Below, one piece after another: positions 36,001 through 45,000 of a DNA stretch of 64,000 bases. The position numbers were made by a program. Each line of letters begins with the position of its first letter. Positions within the stretch are counted from its first letter, which is position 1. The DNA is from an uncultured Gemmatimonadales bacterium (GTDB taxonomy: Bacteria; Gemmatimonadota; Gemmatimonadetes; Gemmatimonadales; GWC2-71-9). The DNA is taken from NCBI GenBank assembly GCA_963779755.1, contig CAVZZO010000003.1:224001-288000 (forward strand), read 5' to 3'.

Positions 36001-39000
36001 GCACCAGCAGGAATTCCAGCGCTCCGGTCATGAATGATCCAGACGCTCGAGCAACTGCATGACCCGGGCCGCGATCTCGCCCAGCGGGAGAACCTGGTCG
36101 GCGCCTCCGGCCTGCCGCGCTGCGTTGGGCATGCCGTAGACCGTAGCCGTGGATCGGTCCTGCGCGATCCCGAAGCCGCCTGCGTTATGGATGGCCCGCA
36201 GGCCGGCCGCGCCGTCCCGGCCCAGGCCGGTCAGCACCACCCCGACCGCGCGCCGTCCAAACTGCTCTGCCACCGATTGGAACAGCGGGTCGGCGGCGGG
36301 CCGCACGCCCCAGATCGACGGGCCCTGCTCCAGCCGCAGCACGGGGCCATCCGGCCCGGCCGCAACCCGCAGGTGGTAGTCGCCCGGAGCCACGAAGGCG
36401 CTGTCGGCCAGGAGCGGCATACCGTCCTCCGCCTCGACCACCCGCAGGGCGCTCTGCCCCGCCAGGCGCTCGGCCAGGCCGCGGGTGAACGCGGCCGGCA
36501 TATGCTGCACGATAACCACGGCCGCTCCCCGGCCCAGGCTCAGGCAGGGCACCACCTCCGCCAGCGCGCGAGGGCCGCCGGTGGAGGCGGCGATCGCGAC
36601 ACAGGCGCTGGCCAGATCGTGACCGGCGCTCTTCCGGGGCGGTGCCTTGCGGGGCCGGGCCAGCACCGGCAGGCGCCCGATGTCCGCCACCAGGGCCGCA
36701 TCCAGCGCCGCCACCAGGGCCGGCCCCAGGCGCTCCAGTCCATCCCGGCCGGCGCGGGGGTTCTTGTCCACGATTTCCACCGCGCCGAGTTCCAGCGCAC
36801 GGATGGCCGCCTCGCTGCCGGTGCCGGCGTGGGCGCTGAAGACCACGATCGGGCGCGGGACCTCGGACATGATGTAGCCGATCGCCTCCAGGCCGTCGAC
36901 CTGGGGCATTTCCAGGTCCATGACCACGATGTCGGGCTGGTACTGGTGCACCTTGCGCAGTCCGTCGAGGCCGTTGCGGGCCGTGGCCACCACCCGAAAC
37001 CTGCCGGTACGGGCGAGCAGCTCGGTCAGGACCTGGCGCACCAGGGCGCTGTCGTCCACGACCAGCACCGAGGTGTGCTCAGAGGATTTGTTCACCACGC
37101 GCCGCCGTCCGCACGACCACCTGTCCGTTGGCCACCCGGAACCAGACGGAGCGGCCGCAGTCGCCGCCGACCAGCTCCCGGATGAGCGGGATGCCGTGCC
37201 GGTGCAGTACCTCGCGGGCCGCCACCAGGTTGCGTTCGCCCATCTGGATGGTGCCGGGGGTGGAGAGATTGGTGAACAGCGACGCCCCGCCCACCAGCCG
37301 GGCGGTCACCCGGCGCGGGTTGGCGCCCGCGGCACCCATGGCCTCGAGCAGCGCCGGAACGGCGGTGTGGGGCACCCGTCCCGGGCGATCCGACCGGCGG
37401 TTGAGCGACAGACTCGGCAACATGACGTGCGCCAGCCCGCCCACCCGGGTGGCCGGATCGTGCAGGAGGATGGCGACACAGGAGCCCAGCCCCAGGGTCA
37501 CCAGCACCGTCCCCTCGGAGCCGACGGCCAGCTCGGCCACCCCGACGATCGTTTCGCAGTCGCTCACCGGAGCCGCCGGTAAATGCGTTCCCGGGTGTCC
37601 ACCAGCTCCAGGTGCTCCCTCACCTCTCCCAGCACCGTCTCCACCTTGCCCAGCACCAGATATCCTCCCGGCTGCAACGACCGGAGGAACAGACCGAAGA
37701 GACGGTCCTGCATCGGCCGGTCGAAATAGATCAGAACATTGCGGCAGATGATCATGGCATAGTCGTGGTGCGGCGGCTCCTCCCGGGTGAGATCCAGCCG
37801 CCGGATGCTCACCCGGCGCCGCAGGGCCGGCAACACTTCCCGCCCCCTGTCGCGTTCGCCGGTGAAGGCCGCCAGGAGCTCCGGCGGCGTCTCGCTGAAG
37901 GCATCCTCGGGATACCAGCCGCTCCGGGCGCGATCGAGCGAGACCCGGTCGATGTCGGTGGCATCGATGGCCAGCCGGTCCAGCCACTCGGGATGCCCCG
38001 CCTCCCGGGCGGTCCGCTCCGCCAGCATGGTAAGCGAATAGGGTTCTTCTCCCGAGGCGCACCCGGCGCTCCAGATCCGCAGCGGTGTCCAGGGCCGCTG
38101 CCACAGTGCCGGCAACACTTCGGCCTCCAGCCGCTGCCACAGCTCCGGATTGCGGAAGAAGCGCGTCACGTTGATGGTCAGGGCGTCGGCCAGGCGCTGG
38201 TACTCCCCCGGCTCCGCTTCGAGGATGCGCAGGTATTCCTCGTACGAGGCGGCGTTGGTCGCCCGCATGCGCACCGCAATGCGCCGCCTCAGGCAGCGCG
38301 GCTTGTAGGCATCGGCCGCCAGGCCCGCGCCCTCGGAGATCTTCCGCGCCAGCCGCAGGAACTCCTCCTCCTCGCCTGTCGCGCTCACGCCCCAACCTTG
38401 AGCGTCTCGAGATTGCTGCGAGCCAGTTGGTGCGCCGGGTTGAGTGCCGTGGCGCGGCGCCAGCACTCCCGCGCGCGATCCTGGTCGCGCCGCCGGTAGG
38501 CGATATTGCCCAGCTTGAAATAGAGATCGTCGCCCAGTTCCGGATCGAGCTTGGCGGCGCGCTCGTACGACTCCAGCGCTTCGTCGTAGCGTCCCGCACG
38601 GTAGAGCAGATCGCCCATGTTCTTGGAGGCCTGGGGCAGCGTCGGCTCTTCCTCGAAGGCGGCCCGCGCCATGACCTCGGCCGCCGCCGTATCGCCGGTG
38701 AACTCGAGCAGGGCCGCAAGATTGTTCCGCAACACTGCATTGGCGGGCCACGCGTCGACGCCCGCCTGCGCGTGCTCCACCGCCGCCTGCAGCTCGCCCG
38801 CGCCGGCCGCCGCCAGGCCCGCCGCCCAGAACCAGAGCGGCGGCGGCGGCCGCTCGCCCAGCAGCTCGCGGGCGCGCGCCAGCCGGCCGGTCGCCACCTC
38901 ATGCTCCTCCCGTTTCAGCGCGGCAATGGCCCAACTCAGCATGTAGCGCGCGTCGTCCCGGGCACGAGTCACCGCCTCGGCGTAGGCGGCCTCGGCCTCT

Positions 39001-42000: not shown

Positions 42001-45000
42001 GCCCTTGAGGGTCTCGAACACCCCGCCCCCGTGCAGGGCGTCGGCTCCAAAGCTCGGCACCCCGCGGAAATTCAGGACGTCGTCGAGGTCGGGAGGGGTG
42101 AGGATCAGGTCCCGGGGAAGATCCTGTTTGTTGTACTGGATCACCATGGGGAACTGGCGTACGTCCATCCCCTGCCGCAGCAGGTTGGCCTGGAGGTTCT
42201 GCAGGCTTTCCAGGTTCTCCTCCAGCCGCCGGCCCTGGCTGTCGGCCACGAAGACCACGCCGTCGGCGCCCTGCAGCACCAGCTGCCGGGTAGAGTTGTA
42301 GTACACCTGCCCCGGGACGGTGTAGAGCTGGAAGCGGGTAGTGAAGCCGGAGATGACCCCCAGGTCCAGCGGCAGGAAATCGAAGAACAGGGTCCGGTCG
42401 GTATGGGTGGCCAGCGAGACCATCCGCCCGCGGCGGCCCTCCGGCACCCGGCCGAAGACGTACTGCAGGTTGGTCGTCTTGCCGGACCGTCCGGGCCCGT
42501 AGTAGACGATCTTGCAGGTAATCTCGCGGGTCGTGAAGTTGACGAGCGACATCTAGCGTCCGAAGAGCGTGCGAAGGCTCGTGTTGAGGTCGCGTTCGAA
42601 ATCGGCTGGCAGCACTTCGCTGGGCCGGGATTCCGGCGGCGGCGCTGCCCGGGCCAGCTGTGCCACCAAACGGTTGAAGAACAGTTGCACGATGCCCAGG
42701 GAAGTCTCCGGACCGAAGACTACGAAGCCGATCCAGCTCCCGCGCGGGGTGTCGAACTGGGCCAGAAAATGTCCCTGCCGGGTCCCCTGGTGCGCCATCG
42801 CGCTGAAGGGCGGCCAGGCCAGCATCCGTGCCAGTTCCTGGGCGCTGGCCACGATGCCGGCGCCCAGTGCCGCCGCCGACATGACGTCCAGCGCGCGGGT
42901 GAACCCGTGCTGCGCAATCACCTGGCCCGACCCGGTCATGATCAGGGTCAGCCGGGCCGAGGATTCGGCCAGGAAATCGTTCAACGGTTCCACCACCCAG
43001 GATTCTACCGCCCGCATCAACTCACCCATTCAGCCAGGCGGCCGAGATCCAGCCGCGCCCGTCCGACGTTGACTCCACGATCGGCAATAAGCACCGTAAC
43101 CAGTTCCGTCCCGGCCGGCGCCACCAGCAAGAGTCCGCCGCTCGCCTGCACCAGCACGAACTGGGGCGCCCCCGCCCCGGCCCCTTCCGCCGCGGCGTCC
43201 AGCCGGCGCACCAGGCTGCTCGCCAGGGCCGCCAGGGCGGCGCCATCGACGCCTTCCATCAGCGATTCCGCGACCACCAGGCCGTCGGCCCGCGACGCCA
43301 GCAACGCCCCGCGCGCCCCGCGGATCCGGATCAGCGGCTCGAGCGCGGCCTGGTAGTCCGGCGTCATGCACTCCCCTCCAGCCAGCGCCGCGCCGCTTCG
43401 GCCGCCCGGGTGGCCAGCAGCGCCAGCCGCCCCATCGGCATTCCGGCCTCGCGACGCACCAGCAGGAGCGTCTCGCCGGTGGGCGGCGCCAGAAAGAGAT
43501 TCGCCTCCGGCGCCTCGACGGCGATGCCCTGCCATTCGCCCAGGCCGAGCAGGCGCACGGTCCGCTCCACCTCGCGGGAGACGCCCGCCAGTTCCGCCGC
43601 GACCTGATCGTCGCGCTCCGCGATGCCGTCGCCCAGTGTCCCCTCCAGCCGCAGGCCACCGCTGTCCAGCAGGAGGAAGCCGGGGCCGCCCAGATCGAGC
43701 GGGACGGCCGCGATGCCAGGCACCGCGGATGCCGGCGGCGCTTCAGGCGCCGGCTGGTCCGGCGCCCGCAGCGGCGCGGCCTCTCCCTCGCTCAACCCGG
43801 CAGCCAGCTGTTCCCGTACCCGGCTCAGCGCGGTCTGCAGCGCCTCGTCCGCCGGCAGGCTGCGCGCGGCCACTTCGAGGTGGTGTTGCGCGCTGGGGAG
43901 ATCCCCGGCCATAAAATAGAGGTAGCCCACGCCTTTGTGCGCCCCGGGATGCACCGGGTCGAGCCGCAGGGTCATATCCCATTCGTCGAAGGCGCTCTCC
44001 AGCTCGTGCTGATCCACCAGGATCCGGGCGTAGAGATCGTGCGCATCGGGAAGATTGGGATAGCGGGTGAGGCCCTGCCGGGCCACCTTGGCGGCGGCGT
44101 CCAGGCGGCGCGCCCGGCGCAGCGCCTCTCCCAGTTCCAGAAAAATCAGGCTCGACGGGTCGGCGGCCAGCTGCGCGGTGAGCCCGCGGATGTCGTCACT
44201 CACGGCCGCCTCGCAGGGCTCGCTCCAGGGTGTAGGCTGCTTCGCGGGCGGAACGGACCTCGAGCGAGTGCGCCGCTTCCTCCGGCGACAGATCGGGCAT
44301 TGCGCTCCAGCGGTCCCAGCTCTCGACCGCCTCCAGAAAAAGGCCGCGGGCGACCAGGCTATAGCCCAGCAGCCGCAGCGCCGGAACGCACTGGAGATCG
44401 AGCTGCAGCGCCCGCTGCAACGCCGCCGTGGCCTCCTGGTGATGTCCCTCGGCCAGGTGGGCGCGGCCCACCGCGGCATGCGCCAGCGGCTCGTCCGGAT
44501 GCCGCGCCACGGCCTCTTCCGCCAGGCGGCGCGCCGTCTCGGGCTGCCCCCGCAGCAGTTCGTCCTCCGCCCGGGCGATCAGCATGGCCAGTTCCCGGCC
44601 GCCCGGCGGCTCGGCCGGCCGGGACACCGGATCCTCCAGCATGAGGATCCCGGTGCTGGCGAGCCCGAAGAGCGTCTTGGCCACCTCGAACTCGGAACGG
44701 CGTAGATGCTGGGAGAGATCCCGCACGTCCTGGCGGCCGTCCACCATGGCCAGCACTTCCCACTCGAACGGAATGAGGTCGAGACGGGAGTCGTTCCCCT
44801 GCGCCAGCCGGGGAATGATGCCGAGGTGGGGAATACGCGTCTCGATGCGGGACCATTCGTCGATCCGCCGGGCCGCTTCCATCAGCAGCGCCTCGGTGGG
44901 GATTCGGATGTCCGCTTCCGTCGGCAGCTCGCCGGGATCGCCCTCCTCGAAGGAGAAGTACCCCTCCGACCAGCTGAGCAGCTCGAAGACGACCTCCTCC

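Follow-up and report, generated by a model that had tools for sequence, protein, structure and literature searches.

The Frz chemosensory system of Myxococcus xanthus acts on MglA/MglB/RomR (passages of PMC4316618), and in the same species the TPR effector SgmX is reported to activate type IV pili (PMC7668184). In Synechocystis, PATAN domains bind PilB1 and PilC, as described in passages of bioRxiv 10.1101/2021.06.11.447907. Neighbourhoods of PATAN with mglA/mglB are also on record (Makarova et al. 2006, as cited in passages of PMC4316618 and of the same preprint). The text of PMC4316618 contains no occurrence of DnaA, nor do the PATAN/MglA passages of the preprint. Here we describe DnaA2x, a conserved, unstudied protein from a soil bacterium of the Gemmatimonadota, which carries two DnaA ATPase modules and is encoded between mglA and a PATAN-TPR gene. 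A literature search found no paper describing this family. The ATPase core of the replication initiator thus seems to have been put to new use as a signalling switch.

Architecture of DnaA2x and its operon

Coordinates are positions within the window (the whole 64,000-nt stretch of DNA analysed) unless a contig, C1 or C3, is named. The parts of DnaA2x are:

40001..41953, minus strand: DnaA2x, 650 aa, tandem DnaA domain-III AAA+ protein (ORF, Pfam, PDB phmmer, alignment with own DnaA)
41258..41953, minus strand: module 1, residues 1-232, AAA+ core and lid with Walker A/B, sensor I, box VII Arg and sensor II
40829..41206, minus strand: helical linker domain, residues 250-375, DEFxxFL ... W..EGYRT.RLE.LL ... 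FRDPD
40124..40828, minus strand: module 2, residues 376-610, with Walker A/B, box VII Arg and sensor II retained, sensor I Asp absent
40004..40078, minus strand: C-terminal tail motif, residues 626-650, EK.V.W.WP...DRLIEE

An earlier note on this DNA had described two tandem DnaA ATPase modules, ~41% identical to the organism's own DnaA and without domains I and IV, and our searches agree. Pfam Bac_DnaA matches twice, at E 4.3e-89 for the whole protein and with its best stretch at residues 6-166, and neither DnaA_N nor Bac_DnaA_C is among 13 Pfam families at E<=0.01; residues 5-228 match domain III of B. subtilis DnaA (8bv3, E 1.9e-48, PDB phmmer). By blastp, modules 1 and 2 are 42% and 41% identical to the own DnaA, respectively, and 36% identical to each other. 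Alignment with the own DnaA likewise bears out the Walker A, Walker B (DD), box VII (RLxxR) and sensor-II Arg residues claimed for both halves, and reveals a change absent from the note: the sensor-I Asp of module 2 is gone (TSDR to TSVS). The ~120-aa linker is conserved and helical, with no detectable relative in our searches. At ~40% identity to DnaA, mixed DnaA2x-DnaA oligomers are conceivable.

The genome has three Bac_DnaA matches (the true dnaA and the two DnaA2x modules) and a single Bac_DnaA_C (domain IV), at the true dnaA. This gene is followed by dnaN and, as had been reported, lies at the GC-skew minimum: on contig C1 the cumulative skew is lowest at ~310 kb (10-kb bins), with dnaA at 305 kb. 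The DnaA2x gene was never found near dnaA or dnaN. In a control set of 80 canonical dnaA loci, all taken from metagenomes, 60 had dnaN and none matched MglA, PATAN or the linker. Since DnaA2x lacks DnaA_N and Bac_DnaA_C, and the sole domain IV belongs to the true dnaA beside dnaN at the skew minimum, the data support DnaA2x being a paralog of DnaA that has neither the DNA-box-binding part nor domain I, and not the initiator.

The surrounding features are:

31047..35110, minus strand: conserved cluster tail (TPR 34235-35110, Peptidase_MA-like 33294-34139, TPR 31047-32993)
35107..36031, minus strand: two CheW genes (35591-36031 and 35107-35604)
36028..37098, minus strand: CheB
37079..37600, minus strand: CheD (start approximate)
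37564..38388, minus strand: CheR (start approximate)
38385..40001, minus strand: PATAN(DUF4388)-TPR protein 1, 538 aa, start overlapping the DnaA2x stop by 1 nt
39672..39833, minus strand: MshEN-like tandem 24-residue c-di-GMP motif in its PATAN domain, residues 57-110 (NF053729, motif scan, PilF match)
41950..42552, minus strand: MglA-type Ras-like GTPase, 200 aa, stop overlapping the DnaA2x start by 4 nt
42553..43029, minus strand: MglB-like Roadblock protein, 158 aa (E 8e-8 to MglB 6h5b)
43017..43367, minus strand: Roadblock/LC7 protein, 116 aa (Robl_LC7 E 1.3e-9)
43364..~44200, minus strand: TPR protein whose C-terminus weakly matches Roadblock (exact start uncertain; the ORF extends to 44479)
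44196..45338, minus strand: PATAN(DUF4388)-TPR protein 2, 380 aa (MshEN-like motif 35.9 bits, just under the cut-off of 38)
45338..48013, minus strand: TPR protein, 891 aa
48019..48639, minus strand: CheC
48648..50525, minus strand: CheA (Hpt-P2-dimerisation-HATPase-CheW), sole CheA of the genome
50530..50892, minus strand: CheY
50935..51417, minus strand: CheW

Read from the sequence, the mglA stop and DnaA2x start share ATGA (4 nt) and the DnaA2x stop and PATAN-TPR start share TGATG (1 nt), matching the 1-4 base overlaps noted before; the latter overlap therefore places the PATAN-TPR gene at 38385-40001. The adjoining MglA (which matches 6hjh, the M. xanthus protein, at E 2e-71) and two Roadblock genes are also as described, to which we add a third, TPR-Roadblock gene. 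The full che cluster was found on both sides of DnaA2x, and the MglA-MglB pair said to exist elsewhere is at C3:576964-578074 (mglB-mglA). The operon abuts the dcw cell-division cluster and lies directly upstream of it. No pil genes lie within or adjoining the Gemmatimonadota DnaA2x operon.

The PATAN insert matches NF053729 (57.4 bits, cut-off 38) and PilF (6f8l, E 1e-9, PDB search). In a motif scan it also fits twice, with 1 and 0 mismatches, the 24-residue MshEN c-di-GMP motif given in passages of PMC5013675. Judged by these matches, the PATAN-TPR protein is a probable c-di-GMP receptor.

Conservation, distribution and natural variants

Motifs were counted in 38 aligned DnaA2x family members. 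The Walker A Lys and the Walker B Asp are each present in 38/38 for module 1 and 37/38 for module 2, and the sensor II Arg in 36/38 and 34/38. The sensor I Asp is found in 26/38 for module 1 and 4/38 for module 2, and the Arg finger, at 23/38 and 33/38, is retained mainly in module 2. Because Walker A/B are effectively invariant in both modules, nucleotide binding is likely to be the core property of the family. We infer a conserved composite site, formed by the module 1 ATP pocket and the module 2 arginine finger, with module 2 itself a degenerate, regulatory site. Linker residues G294 and L300 occur in all 38 rows. The tail is near-invariant (EK-V-W-WP; K633 37/38, W638 36/38, P639 35/38) and persists in one-module forms and where the module-2 lid is missing. 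More than 100 full-length relatives share 60-91% identity, and two-module representatives reach down to 33%.

The DnaA2x gene is present in 78 of 121 Gemmatimonadota genomes, as 75 two-module and 3 one-module forms (total tallied by hand from several searches). The absence previously reported from 15 genomes of three other families does not survive this broader sampling: four additional families of the class also have relatives, which, with Longimicrobiales names among the matches, reach beyond the order Gemmatimonadales. Across families the locus keeps a fixed chromosomal order and is conserved by vertical descent. A PATAN-TPR gene adjoins DnaA2x in 22/22 loci read and mglA in 21/22, upholding the claim that DnaA2x is fixed in an MglA/Roadblock/PATAN block; CheA falls within the stretch in 18/20 loci of the first set. 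Full-length PATAN-TPR orthologs accompany all 78 carriers, and one lineage (L022) has the DnaA2x/PATAN-TPR pair without mglA. The constant partner of DnaA2x is the PATAN-TPR protein, rather than MglA.

The one-module lineages retain module 1, linker and tail. In two other lineages (loci L028 and L027; genomes G036 and G114), mglA is directly followed by the PATAN-TPR gene without DnaA2x, and one of them, G036, has the whole che/MglA operon. Because some lineages keep the operon without it, DnaA2x appears to be an accessory (dispensable) part. The earlier proposal of a DnaA paralog recruited as the ATPase of a polarity module thus survives in that a non-initiator paralog is fixed in the operon, whilst its being "the ATPase of" that module is not supported, and the natural deletions argue for an accessory.

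The genome encodes one CheA, 3 MCPs and the pilus genes PilM, PilC and 8 T2SSE matches over cut-off, with no FliG_C at 97% completeness. A FliG_C match is absent in 60/78 DnaA2x carriers and PilM is present in 77/78, although this co-occurrence is non-discriminating because nearly all genomes of the phylum sample have PilM (117/121). Within the organism's own family a single genome (G043) is without DnaA2x and PATAN-TPR, and PilM is missing there too.

A proposed role and its alternatives

Given the observed architecture, motif pattern, gene linkage and phyletic pattern, our best explanation, to which we give about even odds, is that DnaA2x is an ATP-binding assembly switch working with PATAN-TPR and MglA/Roadblock in an accessory chemosensory output block that targets pili. 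It would be a non-replicative DnaA descendant built from two domain-III AAA+ modules, a family-specific helical linker and a docking-type tail, most likely binding ATP and, in most members, predicted also to hydrolyse it. It would act on or with the adjacent PATAN-TPR protein, presumably its direct partner, and with MglA/Roadblock, together forming an accessory output of the organism's single chemosensory pathway. That output would be pili: the activity of polar type IV pili is a likelier target than flagella or replication. Several observations weigh against this reading: the operon neither holds nor adjoins a pil gene, DnaA2x is dispensable, DnaA2x and DnaA might form mixed oligomers, the dcw cluster is the immediate neighbour, the REC fusion is a single protein, and the pilus-linked parallel in Fermentibacteria, described below, is seen at some loci only and may be convergent.

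DnaA2x might instead cap, seed or inactivate DnaA filaments through its AAA+ faces, as Hda does, so that initiation is tied to chemosensory, c-di-GMP or polarity state. The 41-42% identity to DnaA domain III, the Arg-finger and sensor-II residues, the match of module 2 to NCBIfam Hda (TIGR03420, 166 bits), PDB Hda entries matching residues 392-602 and the dcw cluster directly downstream would suit such a replication/cell-cycle coupler. However, module 2 falls short of the cut-off of the Hda model (194.8). Hda itself consists of one module of ~230 aa and carries a clamp-binding motif of QL[SP]L type at its N-terminus, whereas the DnaA2x N-terminus reads MTGGINARL... and has no such motif. Nor does the gene keep company with dnaA or dnaN, or the 80 control loci with MglA, PATAN or the linker; DnaA2x has been lost from lineages that still replicate and retain the operon; and its fusions are to MshEN and, in a single protein among 120 matches listed, REC rather than to domains of replication proteins. 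Replication control thereby becomes a less likely role, which we consider improbable. The che/MglA/PATAN/DnaA2x set could also define an axis for division, budding or envelope growth, not pili. This would fit mraW, the first dcw gene, coming after the che cluster in the window and in 10/20 loci of the first set and 3/4 of the second, DivIVA 6 kb upstream, and the budding by which cultured Gemmatimonas divides. Yet dcw adjacency may be mere conserved gene order in one order, and is missing in two loci (L021 and L024) though the stretch extends ~3 kb beyond the last cluster gene; the overlapping-gene block contains no division protein; and passages of the sources cited above document links of PATAN and MglA to pili. 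We regard this, too, as unlikely.

The segment corresponding to the ssDNA-contacting helices of DnaA aligns without large gaps in both modules, and DnaA modules occur in a pilus-operon context in Fermentibacteria, as might be expected if the initiator-specific helices were kept to handle incoming ssDNA at the pilus base during DNA uptake. But DnaA2x keeps company with a GTPase switch and with Roadblock, TPR and che proteins; none of these processes DNA, and the locus has no competence gene, making this very doubtful. An anti-phage defence or conflict system that combines an AAA+ ATPase with a small GTPase is the reading we credit least: PADLOC on 8 locus proteins gave generic weak matches (mad8 E 7.5e-9, no passing stretch) and no defence family beyond P-loop/TPR noise, and the genes are embedded among che genes in their vertically inherited order.

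Comparison with known systems

As in DnaA domain III of the AAA+ initiator clade (8bv3/8btg, 2hcb, 1l8q), core and lid align and both modules have Walker A/B and the arginines of box VII and sensor II. DnaA2x differs in its two modules per chain, the absence of domains I, II and IV, its own linker and tail, the loss of sensor I from module 2, and its place away from the origin with che/MglA/PATAN neighbours. With Hda/HdaA it shares a DnaA-type AAA+ fold without DNA-binding domain, but it is tandem, sub-threshold to the Hda model and in an unrelated gene context. M. xanthus Frz-MglA/MglB/RomR likewise combines a che pathway, MglA, MglB-type Roadblock and large TPR proteins; there the genes are scattered and no DnaA-like ATPase is known to be involved, whereas here one operon holds DnaA2x and two PATAN-TPR proteins. 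The PatA-type regulators PixG, PixE and PilG of Synechocystis have the same PATAN domain with a two-hairpin helical insert, fused there to REC and here to TPR repeats, always beside DnaA2x. In MshE/PilB/PilF, a c-di-GMP-binding four-helix motif, which the PATAN insert matches, is also paired with an oligomeric ATPase. There the MshEN (GSPII) receptor domain is fused to a secretion ATPase; here the ATPase is of the AAA+ initiator clade, not PilB/GspE, and a second protein carries the receptor motif.

A further parallel is offered by proteins of type IV pilus loci in which MshEN is fused to DnaA domain III; our literature search found no paper on them. One Candidatus Fermentibacteria MAG (L030) has, flanked by pilD on one side and pilB-pilT-pilC-pilS on the other, a single MshEN-only gene and three MshEN-DnaA genes, of which P0227 encodes 1990 aa with two DnaA modules. 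A second genome repeats this arrangement from pilD as far as the homologue of P0227, where its contig ends; no pil gene is seen at 3/5 Fermentibacteria MshEN-DnaA loci read. Like DnaA2x, these proteins have DnaA domain III without domains I/IV, sometimes two modules per chain (P0225, P0227), and a tie to a c-di-GMP-type domain. Unlike it, they carry MshEN in cis and a giant coiled coil instead of the 120-aa linker, without WP tail, MglA or PATAN. Their two modules pair together in the tree, pointing to a separate duplication. Neither the tree nor sequence identity places the Gemmatimonadota modules nearer to the fusions than to canonical DnaA, so the parallel may reflect convergence.

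Architecture of the tandem DnaA protein and its family

The tandem DnaA domain-III protein, DnaA2x, is encoded in the window as follows:

40001-41953, (-) strand: ORF of DnaA2x, 650 aa

Pfam reports Bac_DnaA twice in this protein (E 4.3e-89) and neither DnaA_N nor Bac_DnaA_C at E<=0.01. Domain III of B. subtilis DnaA (8bv3) aligns with residues 5-228 (E 1.9e-48), and module 1 begins at residue 5, with no domain I ahead of it. In an alignment with the genome's own DnaA (42% identity to module 1, 41% to module 2 and 36% between the modules), both halves have Walker A, Walker B, the box VII RLxxR arginines and the sensor II Arg. 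The earlier note had described tandem DnaA modules without domains I and IV, each equipped with its ATPase motifs. The architecture is borne out by these comparisons, as are the four motifs just listed, but module 2 needs a correction: V508 replaces the sensor I Asp and the initiator-clade motif set is incomplete. Module 1 retains the full AAA+ initiator-clade set (DnaA/DnaC/IstB/Orc), sensor I and Arg finger included.

The true initiator lies elsewhere, next to dnaN at the skew minimum, as the note had placed it. The genome has three Bac_DnaA matches, i.e. true dnaA and both DnaA2x modules, and its single domain IV (Bac_DnaA_C) is at true dnaA. That gene is followed by dnaN at 305 kb on contig C1, ~5 kb from the minimum of the cumulative GC skew (10-kb bins); the DnaA2x gene is not at the origin, being on a separate contig and within a che operon. 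True dnaA appears to be frameshifted in the assembly: at its locus (L001), the frame of DnaA_N (E 3e-11; positions 1161-1457) is not that of domains III-IV (1105-2547), and the frame switches in a series of homopolymers (T7, C7, C5, G6) near positions 1430-1480. A long-read assembly error is the probable cause.

Public records name members of the DnaA2x family either 'DnaA/Hda family protein' or 'chromosomal replication initiator'. The second label arises because DnaA2x passes the NCBIfam DnaA equivalog TIGR00362 by the addition of two half-matches: the 447.5 bits (cut-off 343.9) are summed from two partial matches, each spanning only profile positions ~103-331 of 437. Thousands of Gemmatimonadota records therefore carry a false second 'replication initiator'.

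An alignment of 38 family members, with identity down to 31%, has four conserved parts: module 1, a linker of ~120 residues, module 2 and a C-terminal tail. The linker follows the consensus DEFxxFL ... W..EGYRT.RLE.LL ... FRDPD, with G294 and L300 invariant; the tail follows EK.V.W.WP...DRLIEE, with K633 in 37, W638 in 36 and P639 in 35 members. No relative of the linker was detectable in PDB, Pfam or the ESM Atlas. Its best profile match in PDB (E 0.034) was to a coiled coil, and a weak ABC_tran_CTD match in Pfam was seen with 10 of 22 members (best E 0.0033); both were dismissed as coiled-coil noise.

Conservation of ATPase motif residues in the two modules (members of the 38 with the residue)
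Walker A Lys: module 1, 38/38; module 2, 37/38
Walker B Asp: module 1, 38/38; module 2, 37/38
Sensor I Asp: module 1, 26/38; module 2, 4/38
Arg finger: module 1, 23/38; module 2, 33/38
Sensor II Arg: module 1, 36/38; module 2, 34/38

From the Walker A and B counts, nucleotide binding is predicted to be an invariant property of the family. The catalytic set that is kept best combines the module 1 pocket with the module 2 Arg finger. We infer from this pattern that the modules may form an internal head-to-tail pair, in which module 2 would be a degenerate regulatory site. The motif asymmetry between the modules, and the recognition of linker and tail as conserved parts, are new from the present analysis. 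In a quick ML tree with SH-aLRT support only and an unresolved centre, from which we claim no relative age for the modules, the module 1 sequences group in a single clade (SH-aLRT 100) and 17 of 19 module 2 sequences in a second (SH-aLRT 94). The sub-clades correspond between the two, consistent with one old duplication.

One metagenome protein from ENA (P0223, of a Longimicrobiales-type subfamily) ends in a receiver (REC) domain, and its module 2 Walker A is degenerate; no other of the 120 listed relatives is fused to REC.

The operon and a putative c-di-GMP receptor

DnaA2x is embedded in a che/MglA operon that is followed directly by a complete dcw cluster:

Start of operon, (-) strand, 5' to 3': CheW, CheY, CheA, CheC, 891-aa TPR protein, PATAN-TPR 2
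Middle of operon, (-) strand, 5' to 3': TPR-Roadblock, Roadblock, MglB-like Roadblock, MglA, DnaA2x, PATAN-TPR 1
End of operon, (-) strand, 5' to 3': CheR, CheD, CheB, CheW, CheW, TPR, Peptidase_MA-like, TPR
15604-30850, (-) strand: dcw cluster 3' of the operon (mraW, ftsI, murE, murF, mraY, murD, ftsW, murG, murC, ftsA, ftsZ)
33294-34139, (-) strand: Peptidase_MA-like gene
52896-53306, (-) strand: DksA/TraR-type zinc-finger gene, upstream of the operon, in the interval from ileS/lspA to the che genes
57298-57813, (-) strand: DivIVA gene, likewise between ileS/lspA and the che genes

The overlaps of the DnaA2x gene with its neighbours, already pointed out in the earlier note, stand at 4 nt (mglA stop with DnaA2x start) and 1 nt (DnaA2x stop with PATAN-TPR 1 start); the two Roadblock genes listed there are joined by a third Roadblock-containing gene. 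MglA matches its Myxococcus xanthus namesake with E 2e-71, and the aligned 'YTVPGQ' has the PGQ G3 motif with its preceding Thr. The 158-aa Roadblock protein matches MglB (E 8e-8), as an MglB-type partner. A second, stand-alone mglB-mglA pair lies at positions 576964-578074 of the same contig (C3); its MglA is 53% identical to the operon copy and carries an insertion. The operon's CheA is the sole CheA of the genome, which has three MCP genes elsewhere. The TPR proteins of the operon gave nothing but generic NCBIfam matches. The Peptidase_MA-like gene, which has a weak flagellinolysin match (E 5e-8), recurs in the cluster tail at 19 of 20 related loci and at one of four further loci. A search of sequencing runs returned no RNA run and one soil DNA run (share 0.14), and is not informative on expression or habitat.

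The genome has no PATAN genes at E<1e-8 other than the two of the operon. In PATAN-TPR 1, the helical insert scores 57.4 bits against NF053729 ('MshE-related c-di-GMP-binding domain', NCBIfam; cut-off 38), with 35.9 bits for PATAN-TPR 2, and also matches the pilus ATPase PilF (6f8l; E 1e-9). The 24-residue MshEN motif, RLGxx(L/V/I)(L/V/I)xxG(L/V/I)(L/V/I)xxxxLxxxLxxQ, occurs as two in tandem. PATAN-TPR 1 contains it twice, with one and no mismatches to the relaxed form given in PMC5013675, and with a spacer of 6 residues versus 5 in the published motif. PATAN-TPR 1 is, on these sequence features, a putative MshEN-type c-di-GMP receptor.

Distribution and natural variants

Carriers were tallied by hand in an evenly drawn sample of 121 Gemmatimonadota genomes, which includes the window's own genome and two unpublished ones (G057 and G097). 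DnaA2x was found in 78 of them: 53 of 54 in the window's own family, 19 of 28 in the order's second family and the one genome of its third. The earlier note's limit, the order itself, was drawn too narrowly, as five carrier genomes lie beyond it, in four other families of the same class; for one of these families the evidence is G106 together with the unpublished G097. DnaA2x is missing from all 19 genomes of the sample's three remaining families. Public relatives with names come from Gemmatimonadota, Gemmatimonadales and Longimicrobiales. Full-length PATAN-TPR orthologs are present in all 78 carriers. The one genome of the window's family without DnaA2x (G043; 99% complete, 2.6 Mb) is also without PATAN-TPR and a PilM match, possibly a joint loss of all three, in a single case.

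Gene order was read at 20 loci of ~20 kb, four more loci and the window, of which 22 contain DnaA2x. DnaA2x is adjoined by a PATAN-TPR gene in 22/22 and by mglA in 21/22; CheA is within the fetched stretch at 18 of the first 20 loci. Among the variants, three genomes have a form reduced to module 1, linker and tail: 401 aa with all motifs kept in G049, 407 aa with the lid lost too in G084, and a form in G106 known from a match to residues 1-363. In six further genomes, five of them among the loci read, the match stops near residue 536; the one that was read through (G067) is missing the module 2 lid and has kept the tail, and a second such form (L021) also has the tail motif. We conclude that module 1, linker and tail are the minimal conserved unit.

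The operon itself is also found in reduced states. G036 has the entire che/MglA operon without DnaA2x, with mglA followed directly by PATAN-TPR; the same junction is seen in G114, where few che genes remain. G074 has lost the block from TPR to DnaA2x and retains CheW, CheY, CheA, CheC, PATAN-TPR, CheR and CheB. G112 has the MglA/DnaA2x block without any che gene in the stretch, and in G116 only DnaA2x and PATAN-TPR are left. From this deletion series, DnaA2x is an accessory part and the PATAN-TPR protein its constant companion; the series with its constant partner is added by the present analysis. As a control, a metagenome scan with a divergent member (P0189) as query returned 80 loci, all canonical dnaA: domain IV was present at 71 and dnaN at 60, and MglA, PATAN and the linker at none.

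A probable pilus link, rival readings and known systems

The best-supported reading is that DnaA2x would be a non-replicative ATP switch and would form, jointly with the MglA/Roadblock switch and with PATAN-TPR as presumed c-di-GMP sensor, an output block of one chemosensory pathway. The output is probably polar type IV pili. The genome encodes PilM, a pilB-pilT-pilC cluster and eight T2SSE matches over the cut-off, with no pil gene within the window. PilM is found in 77/78 carriers, but it is near-universal in the sample (117/121). Synechocystis PATAN domains are reported to bind PilB1 and PilC (bioRxiv 10.1101/2021.06.11.447907), and neighbourhoods of PATAN with mglA/mglB are already on record (PMC4316618). 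FliG_C is absent from the window's genome (97% completeness) and no match was found in 60 of the 78 carriers; this independence of DnaA2x from flagella is a new observation.

A further link to pili comes from P0227, one of two giant distant relatives (the other is P0225) in which MshEN, a DnaA module, a coiled coil of ~1200 residues and a second DnaA module follow one another. P0227 is from a Candidatus Fermentibacteria MAG with 12 Bac_DnaA matches, where three MshEN-DnaA genes and one MshEN-only gene lie between pilD and pilB-pilT-pilC-pilS:

JAUXFG010000024.1 (locus L030), 3397-25730, first half: pilD, MshEN-DnaA (983 aa), MshEN (436 aa), MshEN-DnaA (409 aa), P0227 (1990 aa)
Second half: TonB_C protein, pilB, unknown gene, pilT, pilC, pilS, further T2SSE gene

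In a second genome the part from pilD to the P0227 homologue was found again, with the contig stopping at that homologue. Three other Fermentibacteria MshEN-DnaA loci have no pil genes; one is near a REC-GGDEF cyclase. By tree and identity, the Gemmatimonadota modules are at least as far from the MshEN-DnaA fusions as from canonical DnaA, and the quick ML tree has no clade shared by DnaA2x modules and fusions. The MshEN motif appears to bridge these two DnaA-derived families, a connection that emerges from the present analysis.

Several rivals to the ATP switch were considered. DnaA2x might couple the pathway to replication in the manner of Hda. Hda is a single module with a clamp-binding N-terminus, whereas DnaA2x has tandem modules; it does not reach the Hda/HdaA cut-off (TIGR03420; 166 versus 194.8 bits), and its N-terminus has no QL[SP]L-type motif, the motif by which Hda binds the clamp. 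The dcw adjacency, with mraW after the cluster in the window, at 10 of the 20 related loci and at three of the four further ones, would fit a role in regulating division or polar growth. DnaA2x could also handle ssDNA in DNA uptake. A defence system has been considered as well, but PADLOC gives only P-loop and TPR noise.

Among initiator-clade AAA+ proteins, the loading or opening of a hexameric ring ATPase is an established role, as with DnaC on DnaB and ORC/Cdc6 on MCM. By analogy, and as a long shot, DnaA2x and the MshEN-DnaA proteins might form an ATP-charged DnaA-type spiral, aimed by an MshEN/PATAN head that senses c-di-GMP and gated by MglA-GTP, that docks the hexameric PilB/PilT motors on or off the PilC platform at one pole. 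Were this true, the engine of the replication initiator would serve bacteria as a loader of ring ATPases in general, put to a second use in motility. The two families differ in that the fusions carry MshEN in the same chain, whilst DnaA2x itself has none.

Full-text searches returned papers on MglA, PATAN and MshEN, and among these no DnaA-like ATPase was described in MglA, PATAN or pilus operons. If DnaA2x is an ATP switch in this operon, the control of polarity in bacteria would gain a new kind of component in addition to GTPases, response regulators and c-di-GMP receptors, and the re-purposing of an initiator engine would have a tractable case. Known roles of the DnaA AAA+ module are almost confined to replication (DnaA, Hda) and to the assistance of helicases or transposases (DnaC, IstB); in the present family, strongly conserved and phylum-wide, the module occurs in tandem, without a DNA-reading domain, in a chemosensory/GTPase/c-di-GMP polarity operon.
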